From Mustelus asterias (lineage: Eukaryota): DNA of 64,000 nucleotides. The translations under genes and the position numbers were made by a program. A model generated the notes under the pieces. The model ran no database searches and was not told where the DNA came from. It saw only the letters and a list, made by a program, of their open reading frames with translations. Below, one piece after another: positions 25,396 through 55,749 of the stretch. Within the stretch, counting starts at the first letter, position 1; the number at the start of each line of letters is the position of its first letter. Where the stretch lies: the NCBI RefSeq assembly GCF_964213995.1, contig NC_135804.1, positions 59,334,001-59,398,000 on the forward strand. Reading direction: 5' to 3'.

Positions 25396-28300
25396 GAGAA
25401 AACGGAGTGCCATTTTGCTCTGAGTGCTTGGGAGTTAAGGTGAGAGTGGGAGATTAGAAGAATTTGAAGAGAATTAACCTTAAATTTTGTTCGCAATGCT
25501 AACACAAATGTTTGGTATTTTTCCTCGACTGCATATTGCTGGATTTGAAAGTACTTTAGATCTAAAAAAGGTAGAAACAAGGACCCTTAGTGGACTAGCC
25601 AGATGATTAATTTAGGGCAGATATTAAACCAGTTTAGACTGTTCTTTTGCGAACGGGGAGGCAGAGACTATAAAAACTAAATTCCCGATGCCCTAGCACG
25701 GAGTGCCATTTTGCTCTGTGCGCTTGCAAGTTAAGGTGAGTGTGGGAGTTCAGGAAAGTGCAGGAGGGAGTATTGCTGCCTTGTTTCTCTTTACTGTACA
25801 CACGTCAGTGAGGGCAGTTGCAGGCCAAGGCAGGAGGAGTGAACATGGGCGGTGAGTCTTTCTCTCTTATTCCTTTCTGACTTCGGAAGTGAAGGCTGGG
25901 TGGGGAAACAGAAATTGTGGAAAGTAAAAATTCGTGGTACAAACAAATTAAAGCAAAGGGTATGGAGTTATTTGATTTATTTCCTTTTTTAAGACTTCTA
26001 ACGTTTTGAAACTTAAAAGGATTTAGTGATGATGACCGCAGAGCTCGAAGCCGTGGTCTGGTCTTCTTGCTCCATGTGGAAGGCCGGGCAAATTACCAGT
26101 GCCGGGGACCAACGTGTGTGCAGAAGGTGTGTCCAGGTGCAGCTCCTGGAAGCCCGAGCGTCCGAGCTGGAACAGCGGCTGGGGACTCTGTGCATCATCC
26201 ACGAGTCTGAGAGCATTGTGGATAGCACGTTTAGAGATATGTTCACACTACAGCTGAAGGCAGCAGGGGAACGGCTGATCCACGGGCAGACCAAGAGCAA
26301 CAAACGGGTAGTTCAGGAGTCTTCTGGGGTCTCGCTCGCAAATCGGTACTCCATTTTGGAGGCTAATGAGGGCGCTCGTTCCTCCAGGGAGTGTGTACCG
26401 ACCCAAGCTTCTGGCACCACATGCAGCCTGGGGGTGGGGTGGGGAGAAGCAGGGCATTAGTAATAGGGGATTCTATAGTCAGAGTAACAGATAGGCGCTA
26501 CTGTGGCCGTCAACATGACTCCAGGATGGCGTGTTGCCTCCTTGGTGCTCGGGTCTGGGAGGCCACTGAACTGCTGCAAGGCATCCTGAAAGGGAGTGTG
26601 ATAAGACAGAAGTCATGGTGCATGTTCGTGCCAATGACATCGTTCAAAAGTTCGAAAGAAGGATGAGGTCTTGCATCAAGCATTAGGGGCTAGGCAGTGG
26701 AATAAAAGGCACGATCTCTTGTTGAGTGATCTCTGGGTTATTCCCAGTGTCACGTGGTAGCGAACACAGAAATAGGAGAATACCGCAGATGAATGCGTGG
26801 CTTAAGATTTAGTGCAGGAAAGAAGGTTTTAGATTTCTGGATTACTGGGACGAGTTCAGGGAAATGTGAGATGTGTACAAGCGGGATGGTCTACAGCTGA
26901 ACCAGGGCAGGACTCATGTCCTTGCGGGACATTTTGCTTGTGCTGTTGGGAGGAGTTTTAACTAATTTGGCAGGAGCAGGGGACACAGACTATGAGCGGA
27001 ATAGGGTCACCGCATAATACAATAAGACAATCAAGTCAGAGGGAGAACAGCTTTACCAAGTTTCAAGGGAGTAAGGCAAGGCTGGATGGCCTCTACGTTA
27101 ATACCAGGAGTATTGCGGGTAAAGCAAATGAATTAAGGACGAGGATTGACATGTGGAATTGTAATAATAACCATCGCAAAGATACGGTTGGGAGAGGGTC
27201 AGTATTGGCAATTCAACATCCCGGGATATAGAAACTTCAGGCAAGACAGAGGACTGGGAAAGAGAGGAGCAAGCATTGAATTATTAGTTAAGGAGTCAGT
27301 TACTGCAGTAAGGAGAGTTGCTATCTTCGAAGGGGCATTGAATGAAGCTTTGTGGGTAGAACTTAGGAATAGAAAATAAGGCCACATTGCTAGGTGTTTA
27401 TTATAAACCCCAGAGAGTCAGTTGGAATTTGAGGGGCTAATATGTGTACAATTTGCAAAGGCGTGTGAAAATAATAACAGTAGGATAATTATAATAGGTG
27501 ATTTCAACTTTCCCAACATTAACTGGATGAACATAATGTTAAGGATTTGACTGGAGTAGATTTTTTGAAATGCGTGGAGGAGAACTTTAGGCCAATATGT
27601 AAAGCGTCCGACAAGGGAAGGAGCTGTGCTGGGCCTAATTCTGGAGAATGAAGCCGAACAAGTGGTTGAGCTGGTAGTGTGCGTAGTGGTAGCGACCAGA
27701 TCATGGTATGATTTAAGCTTGTTATGGACAAAGGAATATACAACTTCCCAAAAAGGTTTTGGATTGGGCAGAGCGGAGTTTAAGAAATGAGGCAGGATCT
27801 TGCGAAGGCAATCTGCGAACAGCTACAATTGGGGAAATCTGCAGAAGAACAATGGGGTTGTTCAAATAGGAAATAGCCCAGCATGTTCCAAGTAGGGTGA
27901 TGGGAAAGAGTAACAATCCCAGAGAACCATGGATGACCAGATATATTCAAGGCAAGATGCAAAGGAAAAGAAAAGCTTTTAGCAGTTACAAGGAGACCAA
28001 ATCAGCAGAGTCATTAGTGAAGTACAGAACATGCAGGGCAGACTGTAAGAAAGCAATTTGAAATGCTAAAAGGGGACATAAGAGAGCTCTGGCTTGTAAA
28101 AGTAGGGAAAATCCCAACGTATTCTATAAATATATCAATGGGAAGAGGTTAACCAGGGAAAGAGTAGGGTCCATTAGGGAGAAAGGGGACAGTCTGTAGG
28201 TGGAGTGAGACAGTGTTCAACGAATGCTTCACATCTGCCTTCACCAAGAGAATGAGGATGAAGGTATGGAGCTCAGAAGGAGGGAGTGTGAGGTTCTTGA

Positions 28301-28466
28301 GCAAATTGACATGGGGAAGGATAAGGTACTGGAAGTATTGGCAAGCTTAAATGTGGACAAATCGCCAGGTCCAGGTGAATTGTGTCCCAGGCTTCTGTGG
28401 CAGGCAAGAGAGGAGACTGCAGGGTTCTGACCCAATTTTTAATTTCTCTCTGGCCACAGAGGAGGT

Positions 28467-28605
28467 AAACACAGTCAGAGTTTTAACAACACGAGGTTAA
28501 AGTCCAATAGGTTTATTTGGTATCAAATAATCCTGTTGGACTTTAACCTGGTATTGTTAAAACTCTTACTGTGTTTACCCCAGTCCAACGCCGGCATCTC
28601 CACAT
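28467..28605 (+). mobile_element. Penelope-like terminus with partial inversion, inserted in CR1
   Basis: 12-bp target duplication cacagaggaggt at 28455-28466 and 28606-28617. Confidence 0.85.
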
Positions 28606-29519
28606 CACAGAGGAGGTGCCAGAGAACTGGAGAACCTTGAATGTGGTTCTGCTATTTAAGAAGGATTGTAGAGGAAAGCCACGTAAGTACAGACCAGTGA
28701 GTCACAGGTCAATCATAGGGAAATTATTGGAGAAAATTCTGAATGAGAGCATCCATCTCTCATTTAGCGAAGCAAGTTCGATTAAGGATAGTCAGCATGG
28801 CTTTGTCAGAGGGAGGTCATGCCTACCAAAGTTGATCGAATTTTTTGAGGAGCTGACTAAGTTCACCTCCTCAAATGTAGTTTATATGTATTTCAGCAAA
28901 GCCTTTTTCCAGGTCCCACATGGGAGACTTATAAAGAAATTAAATGGAATACAGGATACATTGATAAAATGGATTCAAAATTGGCTCAATTGTAGGAGAC
29001 AGAGCATGATGACACTTGATGATGGCTGCGTTAGTGACTGGAAGCCAGAGTCCAGTGGTGAACTGTGCTGGGTCCCCTATTATTCATCATTTATATCAGC
29101 AGCATAGGTAACTGTGGGAGGTAGGATTAATAAGTTTGTGGATGGCACAAAAAATGGCCGGATACTTAACAGTGAGGTAGAGTGTCTTGGGCTGCAAGGA
29201 GACAGAGATGGGATAATCACATGGGTAGATATGTAGCAAATTGAATTTAACCCTGAAAAATGTGAGGTGATACACTTTGGAAGGAATAATTGGACAAGAA
29301 GTACTCAATGAATGGCATAACACTAGGGAGTTCTGTGAAACTAAGGGACCATGGGGTCTTTGTCCAGAGATCTCTGAAACCGCAAGCACATGTCGGTACA
29401 TTGCTGAAAAAGTAATTGGGACACTTGCATTTATCAATCGAGGCGGAGCTTACAAAAGCAGGGAAGTCATGTTGGAGTTGTATATAACTTTAGTGAGGCC
29501 ATAGCAAGAGTGCTGTGTG

Positions 29520-30356
29520 GTGAAGAAGGCATTCAGCATGCTTGGTTTCATCGGTCAGAACATTGAATACAGGAGTTGGGACGTCTTGTTGAAGTTATAC
29601 AAGACATCGGTAAGGCCACACTTGGAATACTGTGTGCAATTCTGGTCATAGAAAGGATATTATTAAACTAGAAAGAGTGCAGAAAAGATTTACTAGGATG
29701 CTATCATTTTCTATTTTTTGGGGCGTTTAAGAGATCCGTAGATAGGTTCATGGACGAAAAGAAATTGGTTTAGGTTGGAGGGTCACAGTTTTTTTTTTTT
29801 TTAACTGGTCGGTGCAACATCGTGGGCCGAAGGGCCTGTTCTGCGCTGTAATGTTCTATGTTCTATGTTCTATGTTCTATCGGGACTTGATGGATTGAGT
29901 TATAAGGAGAGGCTGAATAGACTGGGACTTTTTTCTCTGGAGCGTAGGAGGCTGAGGGGTGACCTTATAGAGGTCTATAAAATAATGAGGGGCATAGACA
30001 AGGTAGATAGTCAATATACCTTCCCAAAGGTAGGGGAGTCTAAAACTAGAGGGCCTAGGTTTAAGGTGAGAGGGGAGAGATACAAAAGTGTCCAGAGGGG
30101 CAAAGTTTTCACACATAGGGTGGTGAGTGTCTGGAATAAGCTGCCAGAGGTAGTAGTGGAGGCAGGTACAATTTTATCCTTTAAAAAGCATTTAGATAGT
30201 TACATGGGTACGATGGGTATAGAGGGATGTGGGCCAAATGCGGGCAATTGGGATTAGCTTAGGGGTTTCAAAAAAAAAGGGCAGCATGGACAAGTTGGGC
30301 CGAAGGGCCTGTTTCCATGCTGTAAACCTCTATGACTCTATGACTATGACTCTATG
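29520..30356 (+). mobile_element. CR1 3' fragment nested in CR1, itself containing a further CR1 3' tail at 29706-29876
   Basis: Interrupts the host xCVxFW motif; gactctat-repeat tail; inner piece has ctatc duplication and gttctat-repeat tail. Confidence 0.85.
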
Positions 30357-31166
30357 AATTCTGGTCGCCACATTCTTGGAAGGCTGTAGTTGCTTTGGAG
30401 TGGGTGCAAAGGAGATTCACCAGGGTGCTACCTGGGATGGAACTTTTAAGTTATGAAGAAAGGTTGGATAGACGTGGATTGTTTTTGTTGGAGCAGAGAA
30501 GACTGGACGGGGGAGAGGGGTGCACCTGATCGAGGTGTGTACGATTATGAGGGGCATAGTCAGAGTGGATAAGGAGCAGCTCTTCCCCTTAGTTGAAGGG
30601 TTAGTTATGAGGGAGCACAAATTCAAGGCGAGGGACAGGAGGTTTATGGGGGACGTGAGGAAAATCCTTTTACCCAGAGTGCGGTGACGGTTTGGAATGC
30701 ACTGCCTGGTAGCGTGGCAGAGGCGGGTTGCCTCATAAAATGGCCTGGATGAGCACTTGGAACGCCATGACATTCAAGGCTACGGGTCAAGTGCTGATAA
30801 ATGGGATTAGATGGGAAGTCAGGTATTTCGCACGTGTTGTTGCAGACTCGATGGACCGAAGGGCATCTTCTACGCTGTATGATTCGATGTTATCGCGTCA
30901 AGGGGGTGGGTAAAAACGCAAGCTGATGTTGTAAATCATCCTTTTTGAAACTCAGTTTTTTTTAACCCTCATTTTTAGTTGATCGTGCTGCAGGTGATTC
31001 CAAAAGCTGCCGGACGGTCACAAACGAAACGTATTTTTGAACAAGCGTAAAACAGGATGTCAAACGTCATTGCGATGGTTTTCAGATCAAATGTTCAGCA
31101 GACAATTCACACAGTGATAAACACACGGTCACTGCAGTCAGACATCAACTGAACCTTTATCACAGA

Positions 31167-31227
31167 ATGTTGTCCAATCTGATTCTTCTGTTAACGTCCC
31201 TGTCTCTCCTGAAGATCATTTCAACAG
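31167..31227 (+). CDS. Gene B exon 1, leader MLSNLILLLTSLSLLKIIST
   Basis: ATG, Leu-rich core and phase-1 donor ACAG|gtattg. Confidence 0.85.
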
Positions 31228-31420
31228 GTATTGGGATATTATCTACCCCAACTGTCTTATTAAAGAAATAAATATTTCATTGTTCCCAAGTCGATAGAAT
31301 TAAAGGCAGTTCGTCCTTCAAAACCTCTTCTGCATTTCCATGCAGAAACATGTTCTAAGATCTCTCCTTTCGCATTGAATACAGTTAATTAATACAAACT
31401 TTAAATATACTTTCTAACAG

Positions 31421-31741
31421 GTGCTCCAGGAACTTCGATCAGAGTGTCTCAAAGTCCTAAACAGGTAACTATATTGAGGGGGACAAACATCACCTTCTAC
31501 TGCATAATCCCCCTTTCTCATGACAATGTGGATGTCGAGGTGCTTTGGTGGAAACAGGGTGAGAATAAATATATGACAAAAGGAACCGATGACAGAAAAC
31601 GATTCGATTTCAAAATTAAAGGAGGTGGTTTATTTGAGCTGCGAAACGCGACTCTCCAGGACTCAGGAATCTATCACTGCGCAGTGATCCGTCAGGGAAA
31701 AAATAGTGGAAATGGAACAGGATCAAATTTAATTGTCTGCG
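31421..31741 (+). CDS. Gene B exon 2, Ig V-set domain with J-like G strand
   Basis: ctaacag| ... G|gtaagt; 321 nt; NITFYC, VLWWKQ, DSGIYHC, GNGTGSNLIVC. Confidence 0.93.
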
Positions 31742-32346
31742 GTAAGTGACTGAAATGGCCGGGAATATCAAGCACGCTGTTTTGCCATTGTTTTATTGTG
31801 CTGCCTTTGATATTGTAAAGCTCTGTGCACAACTGCCAATTACGCAGCGGAATGTGACATTTTATTTGCTGTGTTATTCCAAACTGCTGGAAATACTCAG
31901 CAATTCAGGGCATGTCTGCGAAGAGAGAGGCAAAGTTAAAGTCTCAGGTCCATCAACTTTTTGAGTAAAGTGTTACCTGATTCACCTCAAAATATAATTT
32001 TTAGATCAGATTTCTTAGTCCGAGGCTGGCCCACGTAGTCTCGATTCCCCAGCCAGAGGAAACAACCTCGCCGAATCTATCCTGTCAAGCACATTTACAA
32101 TCTTGAATGTTCCAATGACATCACTTCATTCTAACTTTTTCATTCTTCGCCTGTATGAGCTTCCATAAATCTATATAACCTTGCTTTTATTACCGGTGTC
32201 GGACAGATTGTTTTTCTCTTGCGGACGCTGTTGACTGATCTATTCTTACTAACATAAAGGGAAGCGAATGAGGATATAATTCGTCTCTCATTCCTTACTC
32301 TGAACATTTCTCCACCAACCTGACTTTCCCCATGTTCTGTTCGCAG

Positions 32347-32658
32347 CTACACCAACTCCGTTAAAGATTTTCGCTAAGCATCCCGCAAGGAATTCAACTA
32401 CGTTCCTGACTCTTGTGTGTCAGACGGCTGGATTTTACCCGGGTGATTTGACCCTCCTTTGGTATAAAAATGGCGTCAACATCACAACGGTGGGAAATCC
32501 GATCAAACGGCAGAACGCAGAAGGACTGTATGAAGTTTCCAGCTCTTTTGAAGAGCCGCACTTTGTGCGGAACGAAGCTGTTTACATCTGTTTGGTAACT
32601 CACATCTCCCTCCGGACTCCTGCCATTGCCATTCACACTGTTACCAACTCCTGCTCAG
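32347..32658 (+). CDS. Gene B exon 3, Ig C1-set domain
   Basis: tcgcag| ... CAG|gtatgt; 312 nt; LVCQTAGFYPGDLTLLWYKNG ... YICLVTH; ends NSCS with an extra Cys. Confidence 0.93.
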
Positions 32659-33965
32659 GTATGTGGCCAACAGGCCAAGAAACAATCTCCAAATTCAGTA
32701 AGGGGCATTTCTTGGAGTTTATTGGCACTGGCAATTTTAAAATAATATCCCGAAATATCCAACCTAAGGAAATCTTATGTTTTCAGTCAAGATATATTGA
32801 AACAAACATCTTGTCAAACCTAAGTAATTGTACTGACTTCCGACTGAATGGTGTATCACAGCAGGTTCTTAATTGTTTGAAAATGAAAAAAGGACAAGTG
32901 GGTTTTCTCTCCCATCCAATTATTTTACACTATGTACCTATTATTAGACATTGAGTTACCTCTTATTTTATTTTCCCAGTATCAGTTTTCCTCACACGAT
33001 TTTACAGAAAATGAAGCGTCAGTTTGTTTTATTGGCCTCATGTGAAAGTGTCAGAAGCCAGCCGTTTAGATAACTCCTATTGGGCTTGTTTCTGTCGAAA
33101 GCTAATTTCGACCCGTAACGTTAACTCTGTTTCTCTCCACAGATGCTGCCAGACCTACAGCAGTTTCTGTTTTTATTTTTCTTTATGCAGCGTTTTGGAA
33201 CGGGGAGGCATTTCATAAAATGCATTTCGACTTTAACTGTGATTTGCTTCCATTAAATGTAACTGAAACTCGTCTGATTAATGATCGCTATTTCCGTTTA
33301 ATTAATAAATAACCGAAATTTAATTTGAGGGTGAAAGGTAAGCATTACTTTGACAGCGATCTCCTTTCCGATGTAGTGACCGTCTGCAGTTAATAAACTG
33401 CAGACAATTGAGCATTTATTTTGTTGAATTGAAACAAAAACTACTCCTTTCAGCCTTGGCAAGTCCAAGTCTCACTAATTTGCCGCGAATTAATCAAATA
33501 AGAGTGAAAGAGGCAAAGAAAATTGAAGTTGCAGAAAACGTCCTTCTGTCAAACGGAATGTTAACCCTCTCACGCCAATGTTTAGAACATCCGAAACTGG
33601 TAATCTCCCTGGCAGATACTTATGGCCTTGTGCCATCCTTTGTGAAAGTAAGTTACTTTTACTTGCAGCTTATGGTGGTAAATGTCATGGCCCCTGGAGT
33701 TCTGGAGTTAAGTCTTTAATAGGAATACTATATGTAAAATTATTGGGAGACAAAGATGATCCCGGATGGCTGCTCGTTTGTAGTTTTTCCACATCAGATC
33801 TAGAAAAATGACTTGAGGTTATTTTTAAACGTCCTTCTCCTAGGGCTGCCGTACAAAGCTGCTGTAAATATGAGCAGTAGTTTACCCAATCGATTATGGT
33901 GGGAGCCAAGGATAGGTAATGCAGAAACAAATTAAAACACAGAACCAACCATTTTTTTCTTGCAG

Positions 33966-34076
33966 ATTCTGATGGTGGATATCATTACCTCTGGATTTCT
34001 AGGTGTGTCATGGGTGGATTGGTGTTTCTGATGCTTATAATCATCACTGGGGCGAAATTGATTTCGAAGAATAAAG
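33966..34076 (+). CDS. Gene B exon 4, transmembrane DSDGGYHYLWISRCVMGGLVFLMLIIITGAKLISKNK
   Basis: tttcttgcag| ... AAG|gtaacc; 111 nt, phase 1-1; hydrophobic helix with Arg near its N-terminal end and basic residues after it. Confidence 0.88.
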
Positions 34077-34149
34077 GTAACCCACAATTTTCATTTTGAG
34101 ATAAATCTTCAGGGCGATGGTAAGGGCGCCCTCACGGAATCCCACGTGT

Positions 34150-34600: not shown

Positions 34601-36024
34601 TGAGCAGCTCCACACGATAGCTATTCAATTAATATTTAATTGAATTAATAATAATTGAAGCAAAAAAAAAGAAATCTTTTGCTCAAACTCCAGCTGAATT
34701 GAGAATGTTATAGTGAAAGAATTGCCACAAATTGTAAAGAATCATATGGTTTGGACAACACCAATGACGTTTTTAAGTAAAATGCTGTCAACGTTCTTTC
34801 CAGTCGCTGTACGCGAATGTTGATGAATTCATCGATTCGGATTTCCAACAAAGCCCGGAAAATTTAATACCTCAAAATCACTGCTGATAGTAATCCTACT
34901 TGATCCGCCTCGAAATGTGGATTGTTCACTTCAATGTAGAATGCAATTCTTTGTTATGGCATCTGAAGACACTTCACACACTGGTCTACCTAAAAATTTA
35001 TTCCACATATATTTCTCTGTGGAAAGAAAACGATCTCCAGGTATTATTGTAAAATGATAATTTTTATTTTGTTTTACCAATGATCTTTGTACTGGCACTC
35101 ACAGTTACACATGTCATACTATATTTGTAGGGAAATGTCGTGCTTATATTACTGCAGCAATCGTTCAAAGATGTGGAGTCGTAATGCCGAGCAAATGGGG
35201 TAAAACTTGGAATGGGATTGTGAGAGTTTAAATTCAGTTAAAATATATATATACAACATTTGATCAGTAAAAGATTTGTCATTTGAGTGATTAGCTCAAA
35301 TCAGTAACAATACTGGACCGTGAGCTGGTAAATTCTTATAATTTATCCAAGAAGAGTATTTAGATTTATATAAATGTTGTGGAAATGGAAATTGTTTACT
35401 ACGACTTATTTCATAAAAGGTCTCTATCTCTCTTTCATGTCCATTAAAATATTGTTTTGATAAGCATTTGGTACTTCTTGAGATGGAGGTGCAGGTGGTT
35501 AAAGAAATACTGAAAATTACATTTGGTAGTTTCATCAACACACAGCTCTGTTCTAATTACATACAATTATCGGAGCGTTGCTTTTGCGAGTTGGCATTGC
35601 ATGTCTCAGATGTTGAAACTGCCTCGAATTGTGCTCTATCTGTAACACTGTAGTGTAGTGAAAATCGACAGAACGAAATGTCAGTTACAATAGGCGCCCG
35701 AATTTCCGGACTTAACATTGACACACCAATGTGTATATTGACCGTGGTTGATGCAATTTTTAGGTGATGAAGCATAACACACTTGTGAGAGTATTGAGAA
35801 GATTAACACGTTGTAGCGACGCGCCGCTTGTGTTTTTGCTATATTAACAATTGTTGCGAAATATGTACCGCATGGGCGGGTTTATAAAACTAAATAAAGA
35901 AAATGCTCATTCGCTCATCTCGCTCCGGTAATGCTTTTTTAAATTTAGACGTTAATGATTACAACATTAAAATGTACCTCGTGTTACCTCTCAATATAAT
36001 GCTAGCGATTCTGCTTACTTGCAG

Positions 36025-36074
36025 AAACAGACAATGTTCGGATTAATCGGACATTCTACACCATGTTTACCATT
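36025..36074 (+). CDS. Gene B putative cytoplasmic exon (end and frame uncertain)
   Basis: Acceptor ttgcag|aaacag and the downstream tttaccattgtaaactt are conserved with gene C 53794-53843 while flanks are more diverged. Confidence 0.35.
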
Positions 36075-38769: not shown

Positions 38770-41540
38770 CGTTGCTCGGTGTTTATTATAGACCCCCAGA
38801 TAGTCAGCGGGAAATTGAACAGCAAATATATGTGCAATTCGCAGAGGGGTATAAAAATGATAAGAGAGTAATTATATCAGGTGATTTCAACTTTCCCAAC
38901 ATTAATTGGGATAGCTATCATGTTAAGGGCTTAGGTGGAGTAGAGTTCTTAAAATATATTCAGGAAAACTTCTTAGGTCAATATGTAAAGGATTCAACGG
39001 GAAGGAGCTATGTTGGACTTAATTCGGGGGAATGAAGCCAGACAAGTGGTTGATGTGCTGGCGGGAGAGCATTTTGGTGATTATGACCACAACATGGTCC
39101 AATTCAAAGTTGTTATGGACAAAGACATTGACATGTTGCAGATTAGGTTTTCTATTGGGGGAGAGTAGATTTTAACAAAATTAGGAAGGATCTGGCCAAG
39201 GTAGATAGGAACGAGTTACTAGTAGGGAAATCTACAGAAGAGCAGTGGGAGTATCCAAAGATGGAATGGAGAGGTTGCAGGCCCAATATGTTCCCTCTGG
39301 GGTAACAGGAAGGTGTAACAAACCCAGAGAACCACGGATGACCAGAGACATTCAGAATACAATGAGAAGGAAAATAGAGGCTTTTAATAAGTATAAGGGG
39401 AATAAGCCTGCGGAGGCATTAGTGGAGTACAGAAAGTGCAGGCTGGACCTTAAAAGATCAATAACAAGAGCAAAAAGGGGATATGAGAAAGCTCTGGCTG
39501 GTAAAAGAAGGGAAAATCCTAAGATATTCTATAAGTATATCAATGGGAAGAGGATAACCAGGGAAAGAGTAGGGCCCATTAGGGACCAAGGGGGGAATCT
39601 GTGGATGAAAGCAGAGGACATTGGTAGGGTGTTAAATGAGTACTTCACATCTATCTTCACCCATGAAAATGAGGAGGTAGTGATGGAACTCGGAGAGAAA
39701 GACAGAGGCGCAAGAGAAAATTATCACAGGGAAGGACAAGGTATTGGATGTATCGTGGGCTGAAAAGTGTATAAAACTCCAGGTCCGGCTGAATTGTGTC
39801 TCACGTTGTTGTGGGAGGCAAGGGAGGAAATCGCAGGGGCTCTGACCCAAATTTCTAATTCCTCCCTGGCTACCGGGGAGGTCATGCTGTGGAGATGCCG
39901 GCGTTGGACTGGGGTAAACACAGTAAGAGTTGTAAGAACACCAGGTTAAAGTCCAACAGATTTATTTGGTAGCAAATGCCATTAGCTTTCGAAAGCTAAT
40001 GGCATTTGCTACCAAATAAACCTGTTGGACTTTAACCTGATGTTGTTAAAACTCTTACCGGGGAGGTGCCAGAGGACTGGAGAACAGCTAATGTGGTCCC
40101 ACTATTTAAGAAAGTTTGTAGAGACAAGCCAGGGAATGATGGACCAGTAAGTCTTACGTCTGTGGTTGGGAAACTACTGGGGAAGATTCTGAAGGAGAGA
40201 ATCTACCTCCATTTGGAGAGGCAAGGTTTGATCGGGGATAATCAGCATGGCTATGACAGAGGGAGGCCATGCTTAACACATTTGCTTGAATTTTTTGAGC
40301 ATGTAACCAAGTGTGTGGATGAGAGTAGTACGGTTGATGTAGTTTGCATGGATTTCAGCAAAGCCTTTGGCAAAGTCCCACATGGGAGACTTATTAAGAA
40401 GACTAATGCACATGGGATACAGTGCGATTTGACAAGGTGGATTCATAATTGGCTTAGCGGTAGGAGATAGAGAGTGGTGACAGGTGGCTGCTTTAGTGAT
40501 TGGAGGCCAGTGGCCAGTGGCGTAACATAGGGATCCGTGCTGGGGCTCTATTGTTCGTAATTTATATAAATGACATAGATGACTATATGGGAGGTAGGAT
40601 CAGTAAGTTTGCCTATGACGCAAATATTGGCCGGGTAGTTAACAGAGTGTCTTGGGTGACAGTAAGATATCTATGAGATGGTCAAATAGGCGGATAAGTG
40701 GCAGATGGAATTTAACCCTGAAAAGGGTGAGGTGATGCACTTTGGAAGGAGTAATTTGACAAGGAAGTATGCGATGAAAGGTCTGACACTAGGAATTTTT
40801 GAAGAACAAAGGGAGCTTGGCGTGTTTGTCCATAGATCTCTGAAGGCGGAAAGACAGGTTAATAGGGTGGTGAAAAAGGTATATGACACACGCCTTTATC
40901 AGTTGGGGTATAGATTACAAAGTAGAGAGGTCATGATGGAGTCGTATAGAACTTTGGTGAGGCCACAGCTGGAGTACTGTGTGCAGTTCTGGTGGCTACA
41001 TTATAGGAAGGACGTGAATGTACTGGAGGGGGTGCAGATGCGATTTACCAGGATGCTACCTGGGATGGAACATTTACGTTATGAAGAGTGGTTGGATAAG
41101 CTTGGGTGGTTTTCGTTGGAGCAGAGAAGACTAAGGAGCGACCTGATTGAGGTGTTCATGATTATGAGGGGCATGGACAGGGTGGATAGGGAGCAGCTGT
41201 TCCCCTTAGTTGAAGAGTCAGCTTCGAGGGGACACAAGTTAAAAGTGAGGGGTGGGAGATTTAGGGGGGTTTGAGAAAGAACCTTTTTACTCAGAGGGTG
41301 GTGACTGTCTGGAAAGTATTGCCTGGAATGGTGGTGAAGGCGGGATGCCTCACATCCTTTAACAAGTACCTGGATGTGTACTTGGCAGGCCATAACATTC
41401 AAGGCTATGGGCCAAATGCTGGCAAGTTGGATTAGGTGGGCAGGCCACTGCATTTCATGCGTCGGTGCAGACTCGATGGGCCAAATGGCCGCTTCTGCAC
41501 TGTAGTATTCTGTGATTCTGTTACTCTGTGATTCTGTGAA
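38770..41540 (+). mobile_element. 5'-truncated CR1 ORF2 (APE-RT) with ttctgtga-repeat tail
   Basis: GVYYRPP, GDFNFPNINW, PEDWRTANVVPLFKK, MEFNPEK. Confidence 0.92.
39883..40055. mobile_element. Penelope-like fold-back insertion in CR1
   Basis: Palindrome centred on ctttc|gaaag (39990/39991); target duplication taccggggaggt at 39871-39882 and 40056-40067. Confidence 0.87.
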
Positions 41541-44460: not shown

Positions 44461-44764
44461 TTGGGTGATTCACGAAAATAGAATAATTTTAGTACACTGT
44501 AGGAGGACCCGTTGGTTCTTTATGTGGCCCATAGAGATCAGGCGATCAACAAACAAACCAGTTTAATTATATTGCTTTGGATCAATTTGATAATTATTGC
44601 CCAGTTGCAATCAGAGGGTATAAATAACCCATGTTATTTCAAGCTAATAAGAGTTTGATACGGATACAGTTGCATTGACAGCTGACCATCTAATTATATT
44701 GACGTAGTGTAGAGTTTGACTGTATATCTAACGATGCGTATGCGTGCCAGCTCAAAAACAAAGT

Positions 44765-45326
44765 GGACCCTATTTTACCATTTTGATTCTAGGTGCTGGG
44801 CTTGAAACTGGGAGTGTTTCAGATCCGACTTTTGAGACGCCTCCATACGCACGCTGCCTGCAAAAATATCAGCGAGTCCGATTCTCGCTGCCTAAGCCTG
44901 TGGGTGGGCATTAATGCACCTAAACCCCACGCCCCCCTCCGCCCCCCCCCCCCCCCCCCCCACCTCTCAAGCAGAGAGCCGTGGGACGCTCGGCACCTAC
45001 TTCCTCACTAAATGTAGCGCCCGAATTAGACTTTCATGGAGCATGTCTGTTTCGCGCCGATTCTGGATGCGCGAACGAGGTGGTAAAGGGAGAAGTGCCA
45101 GTCGAGTTTGGCGTGCTGCCCATTAAGTCAATTTAAATGCATGCAAATGCGTTTCAATGTCAGTCGGGCCCGTTTTGGGCACGGTACTGATTGCGGCCAT
45201 TTTCGAGCCTTGGTTAAGGGGAAACTGGTGCGGAGGCAGGTGCGGATCGTGCTACCTGCCTAACGCCTGACTTTACCAAGTTTTTGCGCCTGAAACTAGA
45301 TGCAATGCGATGGTAAAATCGAGCCC
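44765..45326. mobile_element. Non-autonomous DNA transposon (MITE) with imperfect terminal inverted repeats
   Basis: Left ggaccctattttaccat and right atggtaaaatcgagccc; GC-rich non-coding interior; abuts the left edge of duplication copy 2. Confidence 0.65.
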
Positions 45327-45328
45327 GA

Positions 45329-48300
45329 TATCTTCGAGGGAGCATTGAATAAAGGTTTGTGGGTAGAACTTAGGAATAAAAAATAAAGTCATATTTCTAG
45401 CTGTTTTTTATGAACACCCAGATAGTCAGTTGGAAATTGAGGGGCTAAAATGAGCTCAATATGCAAAGGTGAGTAAAAATAATAACAAAAAGGTAATTAT
45501 AGTAGGTGATATCAACTTTCCCAACATTAACTGGGATAAACATAGCGTAAAGAGTTTGACTGGAGTGGATTTCTTGAAATGTGTAGAGGAGAACCTGAGG
45601 CCAATACGTAGAGCGTCCAACAAGGGAAGGAGCTTTGCTGGGCCCAATTCTGGAGAATGAAGCCGAACAGGTGTTTGAGGTGGTGGATGGGTGGGGGATG
45701 GTGGGGGTGGTGAGGGTTGGGGGGGGGGGGGGGGCGGGGGGCGGGGGCGGGGCGGGATCATTTCAGTGATAGTGACCATAACATGGTACAATTTACTCTT
45801 GATATGGACAAAGAATCATACAACTTGCAAAAAATGTTTTTGGTTTGGGGGAGAGAGCAGAGTTTAATGAAATGAGGCAGAATCTTGCCAAGGTAGAAAA
45901 GGAACAGCTACTATTAGGGAAATCTACAGAAGTGCAATGGGGCGTTCAATAAAGAAATGGGAGGGGGAGGTGGTACAAGCCGAACACGTTCATTCTAGGG
46001 TGTTAAGAAAGAATAGCAACCCAAAGAACCATCGATGACCAGATATATTCAGGACAAGATGCTAAGGAAAATAAAAGCTTTTAGCAGATACAAGGCGACC
46101 AAATCAGCAGAGGCATTAGTGAAGTACAGAACGTGCAGGGCAGACTGTAAGTAAGCAATTAGAAAAGTTAAAAAGGGATATGTGAGAGCTGTGGCTTGTA
46201 AAAGTAGGGAAAATCCCTACATATTCTCTAAATATATCAATGGGAAGAGGTTAACCAGGCGAAGAGTAGGGTCCATTCTGGAGCAAGGGGCCAATGTATG
46301 CGTGGAGCAAGAGGATATTGGCAGAGTGTTCAACCGATACTTCACATCTGTTTTCACCAAGAGAATTGGGATGAAGATATGGAGCACAGAGGGAGAGGCT
46401 GTGAGGTTCTTGAGCAAATTGACATAGGGAAAAACAAGGTACTGGAGGAATTGGCAGGCTTGAATGGGGACAAATCGCCAGGTCCAGATGAATTGTGCCC
46501 CAGGCATCCGTGGCAGGCAGGAGAGGAGGCTTCCGAGGTTCTGCCCCAATTTTGAGTTCCTCTCTGGCCACGGAGGAAGTGCCAGAGAACTGGAGAAGAA
46601 TGAATGTGGTTCAAAGGGTTGTAGAGGTAGGCCACGTAAGCACAGACCAGTGGGTCATAGGTCAGTCATAGGGAAACTGCTGGAGAAAATTCTGAAGGAG
46701 AGCATCTATCTCTCCTTTAGAGAGGCAAGGCTTGATTACAGATAGTCAGCATGGCTTTGTCAGAGGGAGGTCATGCCTACCAAAGCTGATTGACTTTTTT
46801 GAGGAGGTGATTAAGTTCTAGAGTGCAGTTGATGTAGTTTATTTTTATTTAAGCAAAGCGTTTGACAAAGTCCCACATGGGAGACTTATAAAGAAATTAA
46901 ATGGAATACAGGGTACATTGATAAAATGAATTCAAAATTGGCTCAATTTAAGAGGCCGAGTGTGGTGACAGAAGGCTGCTTTAATGACTGGAAGCCAGTG
47001 TCCAGTGGCGTATCACAGGTCCCCTACTATTCACCATTTATATAAACAACATAGATGACTATGTGGGGGGTAAGATTAATAAGTTTGTGCATAACACAGA
47101 CATTGGCCTGATGCTTGACAGTGAGGTAGAGTGTCTTGTGCTATAGGGAGATGTAGATGGGATACTCAATGAGCAGATATGTAGCAGATGGAATTTAACC
47201 CTGAAAAGTGTGAGGTGATACACTTTGGAAAGAATAATTGGACAAGAAGTACTCAATGAATGGCACGACACTAGGAAGTTCTGTAAAACAAAAGGACCAT
47301 GGGGTGTTTGTCCAGAGATCTCGGAAACTGGAAGCACATGTTCATAGAGTGTTGAAAAAGTCATATCAGACACTTGCATTTATCAATCGAGGCATACATC
47401 ACAAAAGCAAGGAAGTGATGTTGGAGTTGTATAGAATTTTAGTGAGGCCACAGCTGGACTACTGTGTGCAGTTCTGGTCGCCACATTCTTGGAAGGCTGT
47501 GATTTATCTGGAGAGGGTGCAGAGGAGATTCACCAGTCTGCTGCCTGGGATGGAACATTTAAGTTATGAAGAGAGGTTGGACCAGAGGAGACTGGGCGGG
47601 GGAGGGGGAAGGGGGTGCACCTGATCGAGTTGTATGAGTTTAAGAGGGGCATAGACAGAATGGATAAGGAGCAGCTCTTCCCCTCAGTTGAAGGGTTAAT
47701 CATGAGGGAGCACAAATTCAAGGGGAGGGACAGGAGGTTTATGGGGGATGTGAGGAGAAACCTTTTTATCCGGAGTGTAGGGACGGTTTAGACTGCGCTG
47801 TCTGGTAGCAGGGTAGAGGTGAGTTGCCTCACAACCTTTAAAAAGTACCTGGATGAGCACTTGGAACGTCATGACGTTCAAGGCTATGGGCCAAGTGCTG
47901 ATAAATGGGATTAGGAGAGAGGTCAGGTGTTTCATATGTGTTGGTGCAGACTCGATGGGCCGAACGGCATCTTCTGCGCTGTATGATTCTATGTTATTGC
48001 GTCAAGGGGGCGGCGGGGAGAAGGGGGGGGGGGCGGGGTGCTGGCGGGTGGATATAAAAACAAGCTGATGTTGTAAATGTTCCTTCTTGAAACTCCGTTT
48101 TTTAAACCCTTATTTTTAGTTGATCGTGCTGCAGGTGCGGTCACAGACGAAACGTATTTTTGAACAAACAGGTACAGGGTGTCAAACGTCATTGCGATGG
48201 TTTTCAGATCAAATATTCAGCAGACAATTCACACAGTGATAAACACACGGTCACTGCAGTCAGACATCAACTGAACCTTTATCACGGAATGTTGTCGAAT

Positions 48301-49820
48301 GTGATCCTTCTGTTCACGTTCCTGTCTCTCCCGAAGGTCATTTCAGCGAGTATTGGGATATTCTCTACCCAAACTGTCTCATTAAACAAGCAAATATTTT
48401 ATTGTTCCCACGTCAATTGAATTAAAAGTCGTTCGTCCGTCCGTCAAAATCTCCGGTCTCTGTCTTCCAGACAGAAACATATTCCAAAGTCTCTCCTTTC
48501 ACACTGAATACTGTTACTTAATACAAACCTTCAATATATTTTCTAACAAGTGCTCCGGGAGCTTCGATCAACGCGTCTCAAAGTCCTAAACAGATAACTA
48601 TATTGAGAGGGACAAACATCACTTTCTATTGCAGAATTCCCCTTTCTCATGACAATGTGGATGTCGAGGTGCGTTACTGGAAACAGGGTGAGAATAAATA
48701 TATGACAAATGGAACCGATGACAGAAAACGATTCGATTTCAAAACTAAAGGAGGTGATTTATTTGAGCTGCGAAACGCGACTCTCCAGGACTCAGGAATC
48801 TATGACTGCGCAGTGTTCCGCCAGGGGGAAAATAGTGGAAATGGAACAGGATCCAGCTTAACTGTCTGCGGTAAATGACTGGAATGACCAAGAACATCAA
48901 GCACTCGATTTTATCACTGTTTCATTGTGCTGCCTTTGATGCTGTAAAGCTCTGTGCTCAGCTGCTAATTAGGCAGCGGAATGTGACATCTTATTTGCTG
49001 TGTTATTCAAAACTGCTGGAAATACACAGCCATTCAGGGCATGTCTACGAAGAGAGACGCAAAGTTACAGTCTCAGATCTGTTACCTTTTTGAGTAAAAT
49101 GTTACTTGATTCATTACAAAATGTAATTTTTACATCAGATTTCTCATCTTGAGGTTGGTCCACCGTATTCTAGATTCCCCAGCCGGAGGAAGCAACCTCG
49201 CCGAGTCTACCCTGCCAGGTACATTTACAATCATGTATGTTCCACTGAAATCATCTCATTCTAACCTTTTCACTCTTCGCCTGTATGAGCTTCCATAAAT
49301 CTATATAACCTTGCTTTTATTACCGGTGTCGGACAGATTGTTTTTCACTTGGGGACGCTGCTGACTGACCTATTTTTACCAACATAAAGGGAAGCGAATG
49401 GGGATATAATTCTTCTGTCATTCCTTACTCTGAACGTCTCTCCACTAACCTGATTTTCTCCATATTTTGTTCGCAGCTGCACCAACTCCGTTAAAGCTTT
49501 CCCTAAGCATCCTGCAAGCAATTCATCTACGTTCCTGACTCGTGTGTGTCAGACGCCTGGGTTTTACCCGAGTGATTTGACTCTCCTTTGGTATAATGAT
49601 GGTGTCAACATCACAACGGTGGTTAATCCGATCAAGCAGCAGAACAGTGAACGACTGTATGAAGTTTCCAGCTCTTTAGAGGAGCCGCAATCTGTGCAGA
49701 ACGAAACTGTTTACATCTGTTTGGTAACTCAGATCTCCCTCCGGCCTTCGGCCATTGCCACTCACATTGTTACCAACTCCTGCCCAGGTATGAGGCCAAT
49801 AGGCCAATAAGTGAAATTAG
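45329..49820 (+). repeat. Segmental duplication copy 2 (CR1 45329-47992 plus gene C ectodomain exons)
   Basis: Same CR1 copy without the nested insertions at 28467 and 29520; promoter and intron sequence nearly identical to gene B. Confidence 0.9.
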
Positions 49821-52817
49821 TAGTTTTTTTTAAATCAGAAAAGGGTCTTTCTTGGAAATTATTGACCTCAATTATCATGAAGATAATTTTAAAATAAAAT
49901 ATCGGTAAATATAAAATGAAAGAGAAGATTGAATGGTTCTGTGTGAAGTTTTATTGGCCCAAACTTGTTGTCAAAGCGAAGTAGTATCATTGTTGTCCTC
50001 CTGCCTTTTGAAGCTCGGCAGGTTCCAATTTTTTCAAAAGACAAAGTTGCAAGCGGCCGAAACGTTCCATCTATTTATTTTACTTATAATGCTTATTATT
50101 AAACATTCGCATTTGGCCACTTCTCATACTGATTTTATATTTTCCAGGACCAGTTTTCCTCACACCGGCTGCAGAACCAGGAGTGGCAGTTTGTTTGGTT
50201 TGCCCCACTGTGAATGGGTCCAAAGTTAGTCTTGTGGGCAGGTCGCAATGCCTCTTCATGACCCAGCGGTTAGGAGCAAAAACGCCCTTTTGAAGTATTT
50301 CATTTTGCTTGCAGCCCAGATCTGCAGTATAACTTATTGCGATTCATAGGTTAATTAATTAACATGTTCTGTTATTAGCAAATAACCATGCATTGCTTTC
50401 CCTTCCTACTGCTTCTTACTTCAGTTAACATACTCCACAACATTGAATTTGCACATTAAGGGACTGAATAAAGTCCATATTTCTCATAGCAGTGGCACGT
50501 TTCGTTTCATTGAATTACTAATATTTTATTAAATAATAGTGTAAAAGAAAAATATAAGTCAAATGCAAGAACAAGCCTATTGATCCATCGAAATGTTCTC
50601 GAAGGGAATTTTCATCGCGCCCCAAATTGGTACTCTCCCTCGCAGGTAATTCTGGTGTTGTGCTATCCTTTGTGAGAATGAATTATTTTGACATCAATCT
50701 AATATGGTAAATTGCGAATACTTTGAAGTAATGCTCTCCTCCGAAACATATCACCCAGTTGCAGAAAACATGAGCACTAGTTTAACCAACAAATTAATTC
50801 GAGGTAAAAGCAAATTACTGCGAATGCTGGAATCTGAAACAAAAACAGAAAATACTGGGAAATCTTAGCAGGTCTGACAGCTTCTGTACTGAGAGAATAT
50901 TAATTCGAGGTTTCTTTTTAGGTAGCGTCCGAAATAAATTCTCAGCATCATTTTAATTTTGCAGAGCCTGATGGTAAATATCATTACATTTGGATTTCTG
51001 GATGTACGGTGGGTGGATTGGCTTTTCTGATATTCATGGTCATAATTGGGACGAGAGTCTGTCTGAAGAATACAGGTAGGTACCCCTTTATGCAAATCTT
51101 CAGGGGAACGGAGAGATTGTGCTCGGCGGCGTTGTGAGCATAAGGATTGCGCAATTGTCACTTATTGGATGCAAGAAAAACCGAAATCGTGAGCGGCAAA
51201 TGGGACTGATTTTATAACGTAGTCGTTGTCTCAAAATTAGGATTTAATGAATCTGATTATTTGTACATTACATTTGGTAATGCCCGCATTCTGGCAGATG
51301 GTAAATCCTGTCAGTGTCCAGATGGAGAAGATTTATAATTCACTTAAAATGTGAAAATCTGGCATTGGCAAAATATGACAAATCTGAGGACTGGCACAAA
51401 ATATCAAGTAACTGATTAATGTCCTTTAGAGACGGAAACAGATTCAACGCGGTCTGAACTATGTGTGACTCCAGTCCGACAGAAGTATGGTCAATTCTTA
51501 AATAGCCTCTGAAGTGGCCACGCAAGCCACTTAGTCATATCTGGCTAACGACAGCCGGAGGTGGACAACAAGTATGCTCGTCTGCGGCACCGACGTCTTG
51601 AGAATGAATGAAGCAAGATAGCAGTTTGACTTTTTCGACATGGTTAATATTCTCACATAGTTCCATAAACAACATGGTCGAGCCGCCGCTTTACAGGCTA
51701 AAGGAACAAATTTATTCCGAGTTTCTACCTGATGCATTACCCCGATAATGAATAATCACTCCGTATCTCTTTGAACGAACGTTTGGGTTTTATCATTAAT
51801 GATCAAAATTGTATTCCGTTGTGCGGTGGACTAGAACACCCCACAGTTCGATTGTTCCCTTGTATGACGCACTGCCTTGTCCATGTAGTTTAACATCCAA
51901 CATTAAACCATTGTTAATTTGTATGAAATGGACATTTTATGTGCTCGGCCAACCAAATACTTGGTCGTTTTCAGTTTCATCATTAGTAATATCACTAGAA
52001 TCCAGAGAGCTTTTTTTTTCTCATCTCCGCTGTGGCCTGCGTCCGTGTGTGTTTCTGCGCGTGTTTCTGTGAGTGTCTGTGTTTGCGTAATTGTGTGCGT
52101 GCGTTTTTATCCAAGTGTGTGTTAAACATTATCTAGCCTCTAAAAATACTTTTGAAGGCACAACTATGGAAAGTGATCGTTACAGATCGTAACCATTGAA
52201 AGAAATTCATTTGCTTATTTTCCAGGTAAACAGGAAAGTGCAACAATAGTGAACATTGGTGACGAGCGGGTGGGTTATTTTTTATATAAATGTTGTTACT
52301 TCGTCGCGGTCCTGCTTAGCCACGTTATGAAGGCACTTCCCTTGGCCAACAAGTCCCGGTGTGGAGTTCAAAGCGGGAATTTCTGGTGCAGCCAAAAGAG
52401 TCTCTTTGTATGGTAGCACCTTTCAACAGTCATGCCGTCACACAGCAAGGCATGTGCTCCTCTGCCCGACTTCGAATCTAACTATTTAAGATTCTTCAGT
52501 TTCTCCCCTAATTATGAACATCTTCAAACTTTTTTTACTTTCTACATTTACATTTTTTAAATTTTCTACATGGACTTAACCGTCCAAACTACAATGACTA
52601 TCAGTATTCCGCTGCAGGGTTTCACATTCGCCACACTCTCCTACCTATTACATAATAGCTTCAAAACTGAATGCTAATCCCTGAATTCTGATGAATCAAT
52701 GACTCACATGCCTCATAAAGTGGAACAGCACCAAATTAGGCTGTGCAACACGAGTCATAAAGTATTTTAATTCTAGAAGCTTGCTTTTATAATGTGCTTT
52801 CTTTTCTACCTTACCGT

Positions 52818-53150
52818 GGGCGGCACGGTAGCACCGTGGTTAGCACTGCTGCTTCACAGCTCCAGGGTCCCAGGTTCGATTCCCGGCTCGGGTCACTGTC
52901 TGTGTGGAGTTTGCACGTTCTCCCCGTGTCTGCGTGGGTTTCCTCCGGGGTGCTCCGGTTTCCTCCCACAGTCCAAAGATGTGCGGATTAGGTTGATTGG
53001 CTAGGTTAGAAATTGTCCCTTAGAGTCCTGAGATGCGTAGGTTAGTGGGATTAGCGGGTAAATATGTGAGGGTAGGGCCTGGGTGGGATTGTGGTCGGTG
53101 CAGACTCGATGGGCCGAATGGCCTCCTTGTGCACTGTAGGGTTTTTATGA
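52818..53150 (+). mobile_element. Young full-length HE1-type V-SINE
   Basis: gggcggcacggtagcaccgtggttagc (A box region), ggttcgattccc (B box), V-core and CR1-like 3' tail. Confidence 0.93.
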
Positions 53151-53919
53151 TACTTGTAACCAGATTCAACTTACTTCCATGTGGTGCCCTCTTTACTGAT
53201 TCCTTATCTTTTCCGAAAGCCCCTGTAAGTCATGTCCACAAATGTCCTTTGTTTTTTCACCTTTGTTATTTCTCAAAGAATTACGTAAGAGAAACCAAGC
53301 ATATCTGCTTGTTGAAAAATGGGTGCTCATCGGGTTTTGATGAATTTGTGTTTCTGTAAAGGTCTGTCAAATTTTCTCAAGTTATTAAAGTGTCCACTGC
53401 ATGTAAGGAAATGTTCTACAACTGTGTTAATACGATTGTGTTTCAAATTATTATCGCATTAGGCTTTGTCGTGCAACAACAGCACATGCTTCAGCAGCCT
53501 TTCGATAACTAAATGATGAAACAAGACACATTCGCGCCAGCAGTGAAAAAGTTAACGCATGGAAGCGATCAGCTAAGCGTTCTGCCTTGTGCTGTTGCTA
53601 TATCGACAAACATTGCGAAACATTAACACTGGCGGGCTGGTTTCTACAGCTCGACTTGGCTCGATAGCTCACTTCCGCTGCAGCAATGCGAGTTTTAAAT
53701 TTAGCTGTTAATTGCAACACTCTAAAAATGTAAAAATGTACCCGGTGTTGCGGAGCGACGGTTATTGCGCCTCACTTTTCTGTATAATTGCAGAAACAGA
53801 AAATATTTATCTGACACGGATACTATGTTTGATATTTACCATTGTAAACTTTCCTTATCTCATTATCAATCTGAATCTATAACTGCGCCACGTTAAGGTG
53901 GCGAAATTGCTCCTATCTT

Positions 53920-54155
53920 GTTTTTTTACACAGACGTTGTGGGTGCCTGGAACTCCATGCCGCGGGAAGTACTGGAAGCAGATACGATCGTGACTTATAA
54001 GGAGCGTCTGGACAAATACATGAATAGCATAGGTATAGAGGTATATGGTCCCCGGAAGGATTGGGGGTTTTAGTTCCGTCGGTTAGCATGGTCGGTACAG
54101 GCGCGGAGGGCCGAAGGGCCTGTTACTGTGCTGTAATTTGCTTTGTTCTTTGTAT
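53920..54155 (+). mobile_element. CR1 3' end fragment
   Basis: tttttacacagacgttgtgggtgcctggaac ... gggccgaagggcctgtt tail. Confidence 0.8.
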
Positions 54156-55749
54156 TTTCAACTTCCAATATCACGCCCCTATTGCGGCGCATCGACATCT
54201 GCACCAGAAATTCCCGCTTTGAACTCCACACCGGGACTTGTTGGCCAAGGAAAGTGCCTTCATAACGTGGCTAAGCAGGATATTATCAACCTGAAATTCC
54301 TGCCAATAGCAGACGGTAAGAACGGGAGGGCTTCCTTGTCAGCCAGAATTGTGTTGCAGCTGCTGCGCAACAGCCTCCTCGCGTTAAAGGCCGCCAAACG
54401 CAGGTTCCTACCACGGTCTGTGCTCCGCAGGTAGCGTGTTCCAAGGTTTCAGGGACTACCAGAGACAGGAATTATGCAATGTGTGCATTGGCCCAAGTAC
54501 GACCTCTGGCCGTTTATTTAGCTACACTGAAGATTTAGCACGCCATGGAATGGAGTGGTCTGCAATGCTGTCAGAACTGATCACATGGCATCCAGCTTTT
54601 AAATTGTGGACACATTTCTAAAACGTCAAAAGTGAATGCAATTTTAACTTAATCACTTTTTGATTGAAACAATTTGAAGAGAAGAGCTGCTAATCACTAT
54701 CGACCAATTAGTTATTTTATAAATGATTTCTTATGGGACATCTTGCTGTTCGGTTTCATCTGCATTATGACCATTCTTTGCTTTTTACTGAAAGCACTAT
54801 GGGCAGTTTGGAAGATTGTGCTTTGACTTTACGAATACACTGCATTTTATTACACTCAAGGGAGTGGAAAATTTGGATCTCACAAACAAAAGCTCGATTA
54901 ATGCCCAAAATACACGCGTGACTACCTACGCTCGGACGCACAGACACGTAAGCCCAATTCACAGTCTGCGTGCATACCCATTGAAAAAACATCCAATCAG
55001 CAATATTAAAGTGAATACATTATTAAAAAGGTGAACATAACAATGAGAAACCGTCTTGGGAGTCTCAGAAGGGGTGAAATCCACTCCTTAGCTGCTTCTA
55101 TCTTTACCCATCAAACTCGTTTATCCTTCTCACCAATTACTATCCCTGTATGCATGATGCCGTGGATATGTCGTTTCATGCATTTTATACTATAGTTACG
55201 AGTTTGAGAGTGAGAAGTTGGACTCTCAGTTACTCCCAATACATAATTTCTAGATATAAGAAGCAGGGCACAATATAAATAGCCACGCATCTCACTGACA
55301 GCGTCATCCGAGCTGATAGAAGTGGCCTAAATTAAAAGATAGGTAGCATGACATTTACAGAGTGTGTATTTTGTAAACAGTTGACGCATGGACTACATCC
55401 ACTTTAGCCGTAAGCCGATGGCATTTGCAATCGAGATCGAGCGATGCTGCTTGCCGCACAAAATTGTTTCCCTCCAGTCTATGAAGGCAGAACGAAGCTG
55501 CATGTGTATTTAGCTTTCAACCACAGACAGTTAGATAGGCACCTGTTCATTCATCTACAGTCAAGCACATCTACAGCAGTTTCGGATTTTCAAAGAAAAG
55601 CCATTTAAGCCTTATTCCTGAAGGATCCAGGAACACACTCTTTTGATACAAACACGCCCTGATAATTATTTGAGCACTTTCTTTCTCTTTGGCCTATTAA
55701 CTATTTTGCATTTGAGGTTTTTATCTAAAATTCAAGAACTCCATTTGAT

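Follow-up and report, generated by a model that had tools for sequence, protein, structure and literature searches.

A V-C1 tract shared by predicted inhibitory and activating receptor genes, and a probable hybrid gene, in the shark Mustelus asterias

A 64,000-nucleotide (nt) stretch of the genome of the shark Mustelus asterias (C4:59,334,001-59,398,000, where C4 is contig NC_135804.1 of assembly GCF_964213995.1; hereafter, the window) contains four genes, A, B, C, and D, with V-set and C1-set Pfam domains. Here, we describe a tract covering the V and C1 exons that two types of receptor genes of this family have in common, and a gene, B, that appears to be a hybrid of the two types. Coordinates are those of the window unless prefixed with C4.

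The analysis covered the region between 58.98 and 59.83 Mb of C4 continuously, together with 20 further tiles. The V domain of B is encoded by one 321-nt exon with a J-like GxG(T/S)xLxV end and is thus of the single-exon, non-rearranging VJ type. Of its 60 genome matches, 58 lie on C4. The closest copies outside the window belong to genes E, F, G, and H, whose V exons lie at C4 positions 59,208,468, 59,466,011, 59,629,274, and 59,804,174, respectively; E, located 157 kb upstream, is an intact gene with immunoreceptor tyrosine-based inhibitory motifs (ITIMs). Both the leader-V and the V-C1 introns are spliced in an 899-nt presumed-RNA contig of another organism, which stops at the end of C1 and does not show the type of the 3′ part.

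Two receptor types and the tract they share

E (NCBI model P0021) encodes a transmembrane (TM) segment without Arg and a tail in which the motifs VTYAAV and TTYAQV each occur twice. Its ITIM exon is tandemly duplicated (C4:59,213,170 and 59,213,872; a 702-bp unit, 99% identity), and the motif count is double that of the catshark protein P0023. In B, F, G, and H, the TM segment has an Arg close to its outer end, and the genes share a short last exon that ends in GDEA-stop and is followed by AATAAA; catshark Arg-type proteins end in GNEA. In its place, the NCBI model of B (P0001) has a short AVREC exon near 34,800, and neither version contains a tyrosine. ITIMs recruit SHP-1/2, and a TM Arg of this kind pairs with FcR-gamma or CD3-zeta. 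Judged by sequence, the signaling modules are opposing: an ITIM tail in E versus a charged TM segment with a short tail in B, F, G, and H.

Mismatch between E and F, G, or H amounts to 26 to 28% in the promoter, the leader, and most of intron 1, and to ~4% between 31,374 and 32,681. When E is compared with G, the mismatch is 4.1% within this interval and ~40% after it, and none of 2000 permutations reproduced the left (31374) or the right (32681) edge (0/2000 for each). No breakpoint was detected between F and G (869/2000). The resulting tract of ~1.3 kb, ~96% identical between E and F/G/H, is flanked by regions of 72 to 74% and ~60% identity. Intron 2 (605 nt) is as alike as the exons, with 94 to 97% identity between B and F/G/H and up to 98% between the types, compared to 76 to 77% for intron 1. 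Since this noncoding intron is homogenized too, selection at the protein level does not explain the tract. Homogenization is limited to the ectodomain, noncoding DNA included, and ends at two breakpoints. At the protein level, E matches B, F, G, and H at 97 to 103 of 106 V residues and 96 to 102 of 104 C1 residues. A tract with such sharp edges is likely the signature of gene conversion. Within it, E and gene C, its own duplicate (see below), are 85 to 91% identical; because E resembles F/G/H more closely here than it does C, exchange appears to have continued after the E/C split.

A similar pattern is seen in the catshark, where the ITIM protein P0023 matches the Arg proteins P0002 and P0024 at 104/106 V and 100 to 102/104 C1 residues, while catshark proteins match those of M. 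asterias at 82 to 87/106 and 71 to 77/104. The TM segments agree by type: E shares 29 of 37 residues with catshark P0023 and 18 of 37 with B. Separate trees of ectodomain and TM exons that include paralogs, as an initial annotation of the window had proposed, were built from 13 rows chosen from 22 to 24, leaving out C, H, and more distant or mis-modeled rows. In the V and C1 trees, the sequences cluster by species, and a clade of Arg types is rejected in both (P value of the approximately unbiased test, p-AU, of 2e-53 and 2e-07). Two horn shark models are alike at 56/56 V residues, though the tail of one of them looks mis-modeled.

A second pair consists of the Arg gene A2 (C4:59,186,781) and the ITIM gene K (C4:59,501,675, minus strand), which lie on opposite strands, 315 kb apart. 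Their V exons agree at 315 of 321 nt, while the introns are 51 to 69% and C1 84% identical; only V is shared. K agrees with its own duplicates K2/K3 at 297 of 318 V positions, and with K2 alone at 300 of 321 nt, despite introns that are 95 to 96% identical with those of K2. The window copy of this Arg gene is A, most of whose TM exon is lost.

Gene B and the origin of the shared tract

Upstream of the tract, B is of the E type. Over positions 30950-31420, it matches E at 83 of the 85 diagnostic sites at which E differs from F, G, and H alike; at the 483 downstream diagnostic sites, it follows F/G/H in 473 cases. Mismatch between B and E is 1.5% before 32681 and 40.3% after it, and that between B and G is 28% before 31374 and 3.5% after it. 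The E-like part extends far upstream as a block of ~90 kb (C4:59,115,877-59,209,4xx versus 59,277,056-59,366,68x; 95.7 to 98.4% identity) that includes gene A and ends at the C1 exon of B. There is no evident microhomology at the junction (C4:59,277,055/56).

The long interspersed nuclear element (LINE) upstream of B contains pieces of a reverse transcriptase (RT)-like open reading frame (ORF); it is 81 to 86% identical to 45329-47993 by blastn, and its tiles match the region upstream of E at 97 to 99%. It is presumably a CR1 element, a label taken over from the initial annotation. A third CR1 copy (38772-41514) was considered as a part of the duplication. It is only 71 to 74% identical to the copies upstream of B and C and absent from the F/G/H alignments and is therefore likely a separate insertion.

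Most probably, these V-C1 receptors are of two old types whose V-C1 regions were homogenized by repeated gene conversion, and B is a hybrid produced by unequal crossover in the tract. The main process was likely the repeated homogenization of an old pair, both types of which are also found in the catshark, rather than the creation of a new one. An older duplication (~12% divergence) would have given rise to E and C; C then died and drifted, and V-C1 exchange went on between E and the Arg genes. A recent duplication of the ~90-kb block ending in the ectodomain of E (2 to 4% divergence), accompanied by recombination in the tract, would have placed an activating 3′ half behind the promoter of E. 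In the simplest history, B would stem either from a recent tandem duplication and a subsequent unequal crossover within the tract, or from a single template-switch event with the same result. Conversion may hold the two partners, one predicted to inhibit and the other to activate, to a common ligand. SHP-1/2 would be recruited by E through its ITIMs and motifs resembling the immunoreceptor tyrosine-based switch motif, signaling by B, F, and G would depend on an adaptor of the FcR-gamma or CD3-zeta type, and B would be expressed in the cells that express E.

Several points weigh against this explanation. Only 13 diagnostic sites lie inside the tract, 5 E-like and 8 F/G/H-like, and the crossover point of B cannot be placed there. 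On its 3′ side, B is 91 to 98% identical to F/G/H within the gene and 82 to 87% identical at 41.5 to 44.8 kb, which calls for further exchange. No read or contig joining the E-type intron 1 of B to its Arg-type intron 3 was seen, and B rests on the assembly. H carries an in-frame stop in C1 (C4:59,805,188). The activating and inhibitory assignments are predictions read from motifs, and conversion between E and F/G/H may have run in either direction. For the catshark and the horn shark, the data consist of protein models only. The TM tree (37 columns) joins the Arg types across species (91/88, unstarred), but species clades are not rejected (p-AU of 0.145 and 0.096). The old orthology of the two types thus also rests on the TM identities given above and on the GDEA/GNEA end. 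The leader evidence is weak, with 14/20 residues shared by F and catshark Arg proteins and 11/21 in the case of B/E.

B could instead be an assembly artefact or a falsely duplicated haplotype in which the 5′ part of E was joined to the 3′ part of F/G/H over the shared 1.3 kb; the homogenization of E and F/G/H would be unaffected. The missing bridging read agrees with such an origin. False duplication is possible in this cluster, where a 65-kb block occurs twice at 99.7% identity (C4:59,523,966-59,589,559 and 59,682,806-59,748,433), representing either a very recent duplication or a false one of the assembly. However, B and E show 1.5% mismatch, ~0.3 kb of intron 2 that has been lost from E is still present in B, and the 3′ half of B is 3 to 5% different from each of F, G, and H, while the upstream blocks differ by 2 to 4% with many indels. 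We therefore consider an artefact quite unlikely.

According to a birth-and-death scenario, activating genes would arise anew in each species by whole-gene duplication of an inhibitory gene, the ectodomain being held by purifying selection. The grouping of ectodomain trees by species is as expected in this case, and so are TM species clades that are not rejected. Whole-gene duplication is, however, hard to reconcile with an intron 2 that is 94 to 98% alike between the types next to an intron 3 at ~60% and an intron 1 at ~76%, with sharp edges that lie in introns, and with an Arg position and a short tail shared with the catshark. Such an origin is very improbable.

A broader proposal can be made, though we regard it as tentative and somewhat doubtful. 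Cartilaginous fish may have their own large paired VJ-C1 family, a counterpart of KIR/LILR/SIRP that is not linked to the major histocompatibility complex (MHC). Conversion, acting independently in the different lineages since before the catshark/houndshark split, may have held the members of at least two inhibitory/activating pairs to common ligands, and B may be a live promoter-swap receptor that adds activation to E-expressing cells.

Gene C and its comparison with B

The initial annotation had described B and C as near-identical, almost base for base, from an upstream CR1 through C1 and as abruptly divergent after it. The step is indeed found at 32,678, ~20 nt past the C1 donor, with a mismatch of 11.7% before and 37.6% after it (maximum chi-square, 0/2000 permutations), and it persists after repeat masking. 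With repeats masked, identity is 157/193 (81%) in intron 1, 446/512 (87%) in intron 2, and 618/994 (62%) in intron 3, which rules out uniform divergence of the two genes; shuffled controls for intron 3 (n = 20) had a mean of 48% and a maximum of 50%. Sharing starts at 27,322/45,329, inside the CR1, and patchy similarity past C1 is present as well (66% at 32733-33052, 75% at 33591-33683, and 75% in the TM region). The step thus stands, but “near-identical” does not: identity is 2004/2278 (88.0%) over 30359-32681, 1306/1491 (87.6%) from the ATG to the end of C1, and 84.5 and 85.4% in the two CR1 blocks, and B has insertions of ~0.13 and ~0.84 kb that C lacks. The patch at 32965-33050 was considered as an extra exon and rejected; inspected by eye, its reading frame is interrupted by a stop in B, and in the NCBI models the TM exon follows C1 immediately.

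C is broken, which the initial annotation had overlooked. The V acceptor AG reads AA at 48548-49, the next AG being one base out of frame, and the C1 exon has 311 nt instead of 312 (a 1-nt deletion near 49495). A segment of ~2.7 kb holding the two tandem ITIM exons of E is absent from C, the alignment jumping from 59,212,137 to 59,214,867 of C4; in a genome search, the ITIM exon had two matches only, both in E. C, then, does not encode an intact inhibitory receptor. Since it is a pseudogene, B and C cannot be a working activating/inhibitory pair, and the candidate pair is E versus B/F/G. An 82-nt inverted copy (52310-52391 and 54199-54280, 98.8% identity) lies exactly at the site of the ITIM-exon loss and suggests a template-switch deletion.

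The divergence of C from E is even, at ~12%, without a breakpoint (the observed value is reached in 256/2000 permutations). Tiles from 45.0 to 64.0 kb are 84 to 95% identical to E, and the likeness extends over ~65 kb, through D and further. Among the diagnostic sites, C agrees with E at 59 of 85 upstream of the tract and at 331 of 483 downstream of it. According to these alignments, C arose by an old duplication of the E block and is not a chimera; it is a dead gene of the predicted inhibitory type. The idea that C received a B-type ectodomain on the signaling exons of an older paralog and forms a pair with B accommodates the real B/C step and the CR1 of C being cut at 45,329 while that of B is full, but it is contradicted by the even match of C to E over 19 kb, by the diagnostic sites, and by the broken state of C, and is most unlikely. 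Thus, the B/C step appears to be the right edge of the shared tract viewed against C as a dead outgroup. Conversion or unequal crossover linking an ectodomain to other signaling exons, as initially suggested, is supported as a kind of mechanism, with different actors: B appears to be a mosaic with E, not with C.

Expansions of G/C runs are present in and around the CR1 and promoter of C (44925-44960, 45679-45756, and 48004-48045); B and E do not have them. A minus-strand gene downstream of D (C4:59,416-59,421 kb) is frameshifted in V and C1, and much of the C block looks dead. The copy of D beside E has a tyrosine-motif exon at C4:59,230,525.

Table 1. Positions of the described features in the window.
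Feature	Position	Strand	Remarks
Gene A	14163..16100	+	V 14163-14480, C1 15093-15404; TM exon mostly deleted near 16,067; in recently duplicated block; V exon shared with K
CR1-type LINE upstream of B	27322..30890	+	Part shared with C; B copy runs upstream to ~26 kb; E has full copy
B promoter, 5′ untranslated region, leader exon, and 5′ part of intron 1	30950..31374	+	E type; ATG 31167, donor 31228
Putatively homogenized tract	31375..32681	+	End of intron 1, V 31421-31741, intron 2, C1 32347-32658, ~20 nt of intron 3; common to E, B, F, G, and H
B TM exon	33966..34076	+	Arg near outer end, predicted activating type; exon region has four genome matches, one each in B, F, G, and H
B predicted last exon	35764..35898	+	Tail GDEA-stop, no tyrosine; AATAAA at 35893; kept in B, F, G, and H at 95.5-96%
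CR1 upstream of C	45329..47993	+	5′-truncated copy of the CR1 of B; presumed left edge of older E-block duplication
Pseudogene C	48289..49787	+	Leader 48289-48349, V 48550-48870, C1 49477-49787
C TM exon	50965..51075	+	B-type Arg absent; E (inhibitory) type; E followed at 29/31 diagnostic TM sites
C first cytoplasmic exon and deletion point	52226..52401	+	Exon 52226-52269; deletion point 52311-52401
Gene D	59630..61999		Fourth V-C1 gene; ~90% like copy beside E

Family assignment and known paired receptors

We file the family as SIRP-like VJ-C1 receptors, neither NCR3 nor proven SIRP. SIRP alpha/beta is the automatic NCBI name of P0001, P0002, P0021, and P0023, and SIRP alpha is the second-best PDB sequence match and scores 0.96 by Atlas features. 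Mammalian SIRPs have a V-C1-C1 layout, the TM charge of SIRP beta is a Lys, and NSFL1C is a neighbor of the tetrapod SIRP locus. The cluster genes resemble SIRP alpha/beta in the single-exon VJ-type V domain, C1, and the existence of ITIM-tailed and short-tailed forms; they differ in having one C1 instead of two and Arg instead of Lys. An activating form with a TM lysine was not found among them, the residue inside the TM segment being Arg. SEP-domain matches, examined as a check of NSFL1C synteny, are found in the genome on C7 and C20 only, and the 100 of 302 flank ORFs that were scanned contained no clear flanking gene (one RT match and one sub-cutoff GST match). SIRP beta pairs with DAP12 (PMC12975943).

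NCR3/NKp30 was the first family label and was downgraded after MHC linkage was checked. All 140 genome matches of MHC class I lie on C8, so the receptor cluster on C4 is not MHC-linked; a search of the genome for MHC class II gave no match. NKp30 was not among the best 60 of 1107 PDB sequence matches, nor among the best 60 of 256 in a PDB profile search, which was uninformative; the V matches were generic Ig domains. The TM Arg of NKp30 lies near the outer end, and shark NCR3 was reportedly treated by Kinlein in 2021. As far as passages of PMC10751288 and PMC12227049 go, NCR3/NKp30 likewise has a single-exon VJ domain with a GxG(T/S)xLxV end; the cluster adds a C1 exon and ITIM forms and is separate from the class I matches.

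Passages of Fossum et al. 2011 (PMC3210942) describe the same behavior for KLRC/NKG2, KLRI, KLRB, Ly49, and PIR, in which ligand-binding exons are homogenized within species while the opposing signaling parts keep their cross-species orthology, and term the process merohomogenization. Those systems are mammalian with known ligands, whereas the genes described here form a cartilaginous-fish V-C1 family in which the tract extends to the membrane-proximal C1 in one pair and is limited to V in the other. SIGLEC5/SIGLEC14 (PMC4042635) and SIGLEC11/SIGLEC16 (PMC5701461), according to passages of these papers, also combine conversion in the first two domains, a promoter-swapping fusion gene, and a nonfunctional copy in the system. 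The SIGLEC14/5 fusion is reported to place the inhibitory protein under the activating promoter with deletion of a gene (PMC4042635). B would be its mirror image, with an activating 3′ half under an inhibitory promoter and E kept; Siglec-14 uses DAP12, and B has an Arg. A case in Xenopus CEACAM is listed as well (PMC5112662).

The genes studied here are not mentioned in passages of PMC12227049, PMC10751288, PMC11599192, and PMC4701786. For cartilaginous fish, no report of paired V-C1 receptors or of conversion among them was found in partly covered literature that did not extend to relevant work of the Flajnik/Ohta groups, so an earlier description of the family is possible. The comparison suggests a mechanism of a known kind (Siglec-5/14, NKG2, PIR) in a new lineage and family. 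Homogenization of paired-receptor ectodomains, established in mammals and listed for Xenopus, would thereby extend to the most ancient lineage that possesses adaptive immunity, and to a non-rearranging VJ-C1 family whose only database label is SIRP-like. For the inhibitory and activating leukocyte receptors of sharks, the genes are named candidates. In one pair the conversion edges enclose V only, in the other V and C1; they point to the surface that binds the ligand, so that a ligand screen and a test for pathogen decoys become direct. Trees based on ectodomains will misassign orthologs in this family.

Further members of the family with Arg in the TM segment lie at C4:59,564-59,569 kb and 59,723-59,728 kb, and related V exons form another cluster, larger than this one, ~8 Mb away at C4:67.7-70.0 Mb. 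A distant member with a TM Arg and a short tail, P0012, appears from its source name to come from a chimaera-type RefSeq record and hints that both receptor types are very old.

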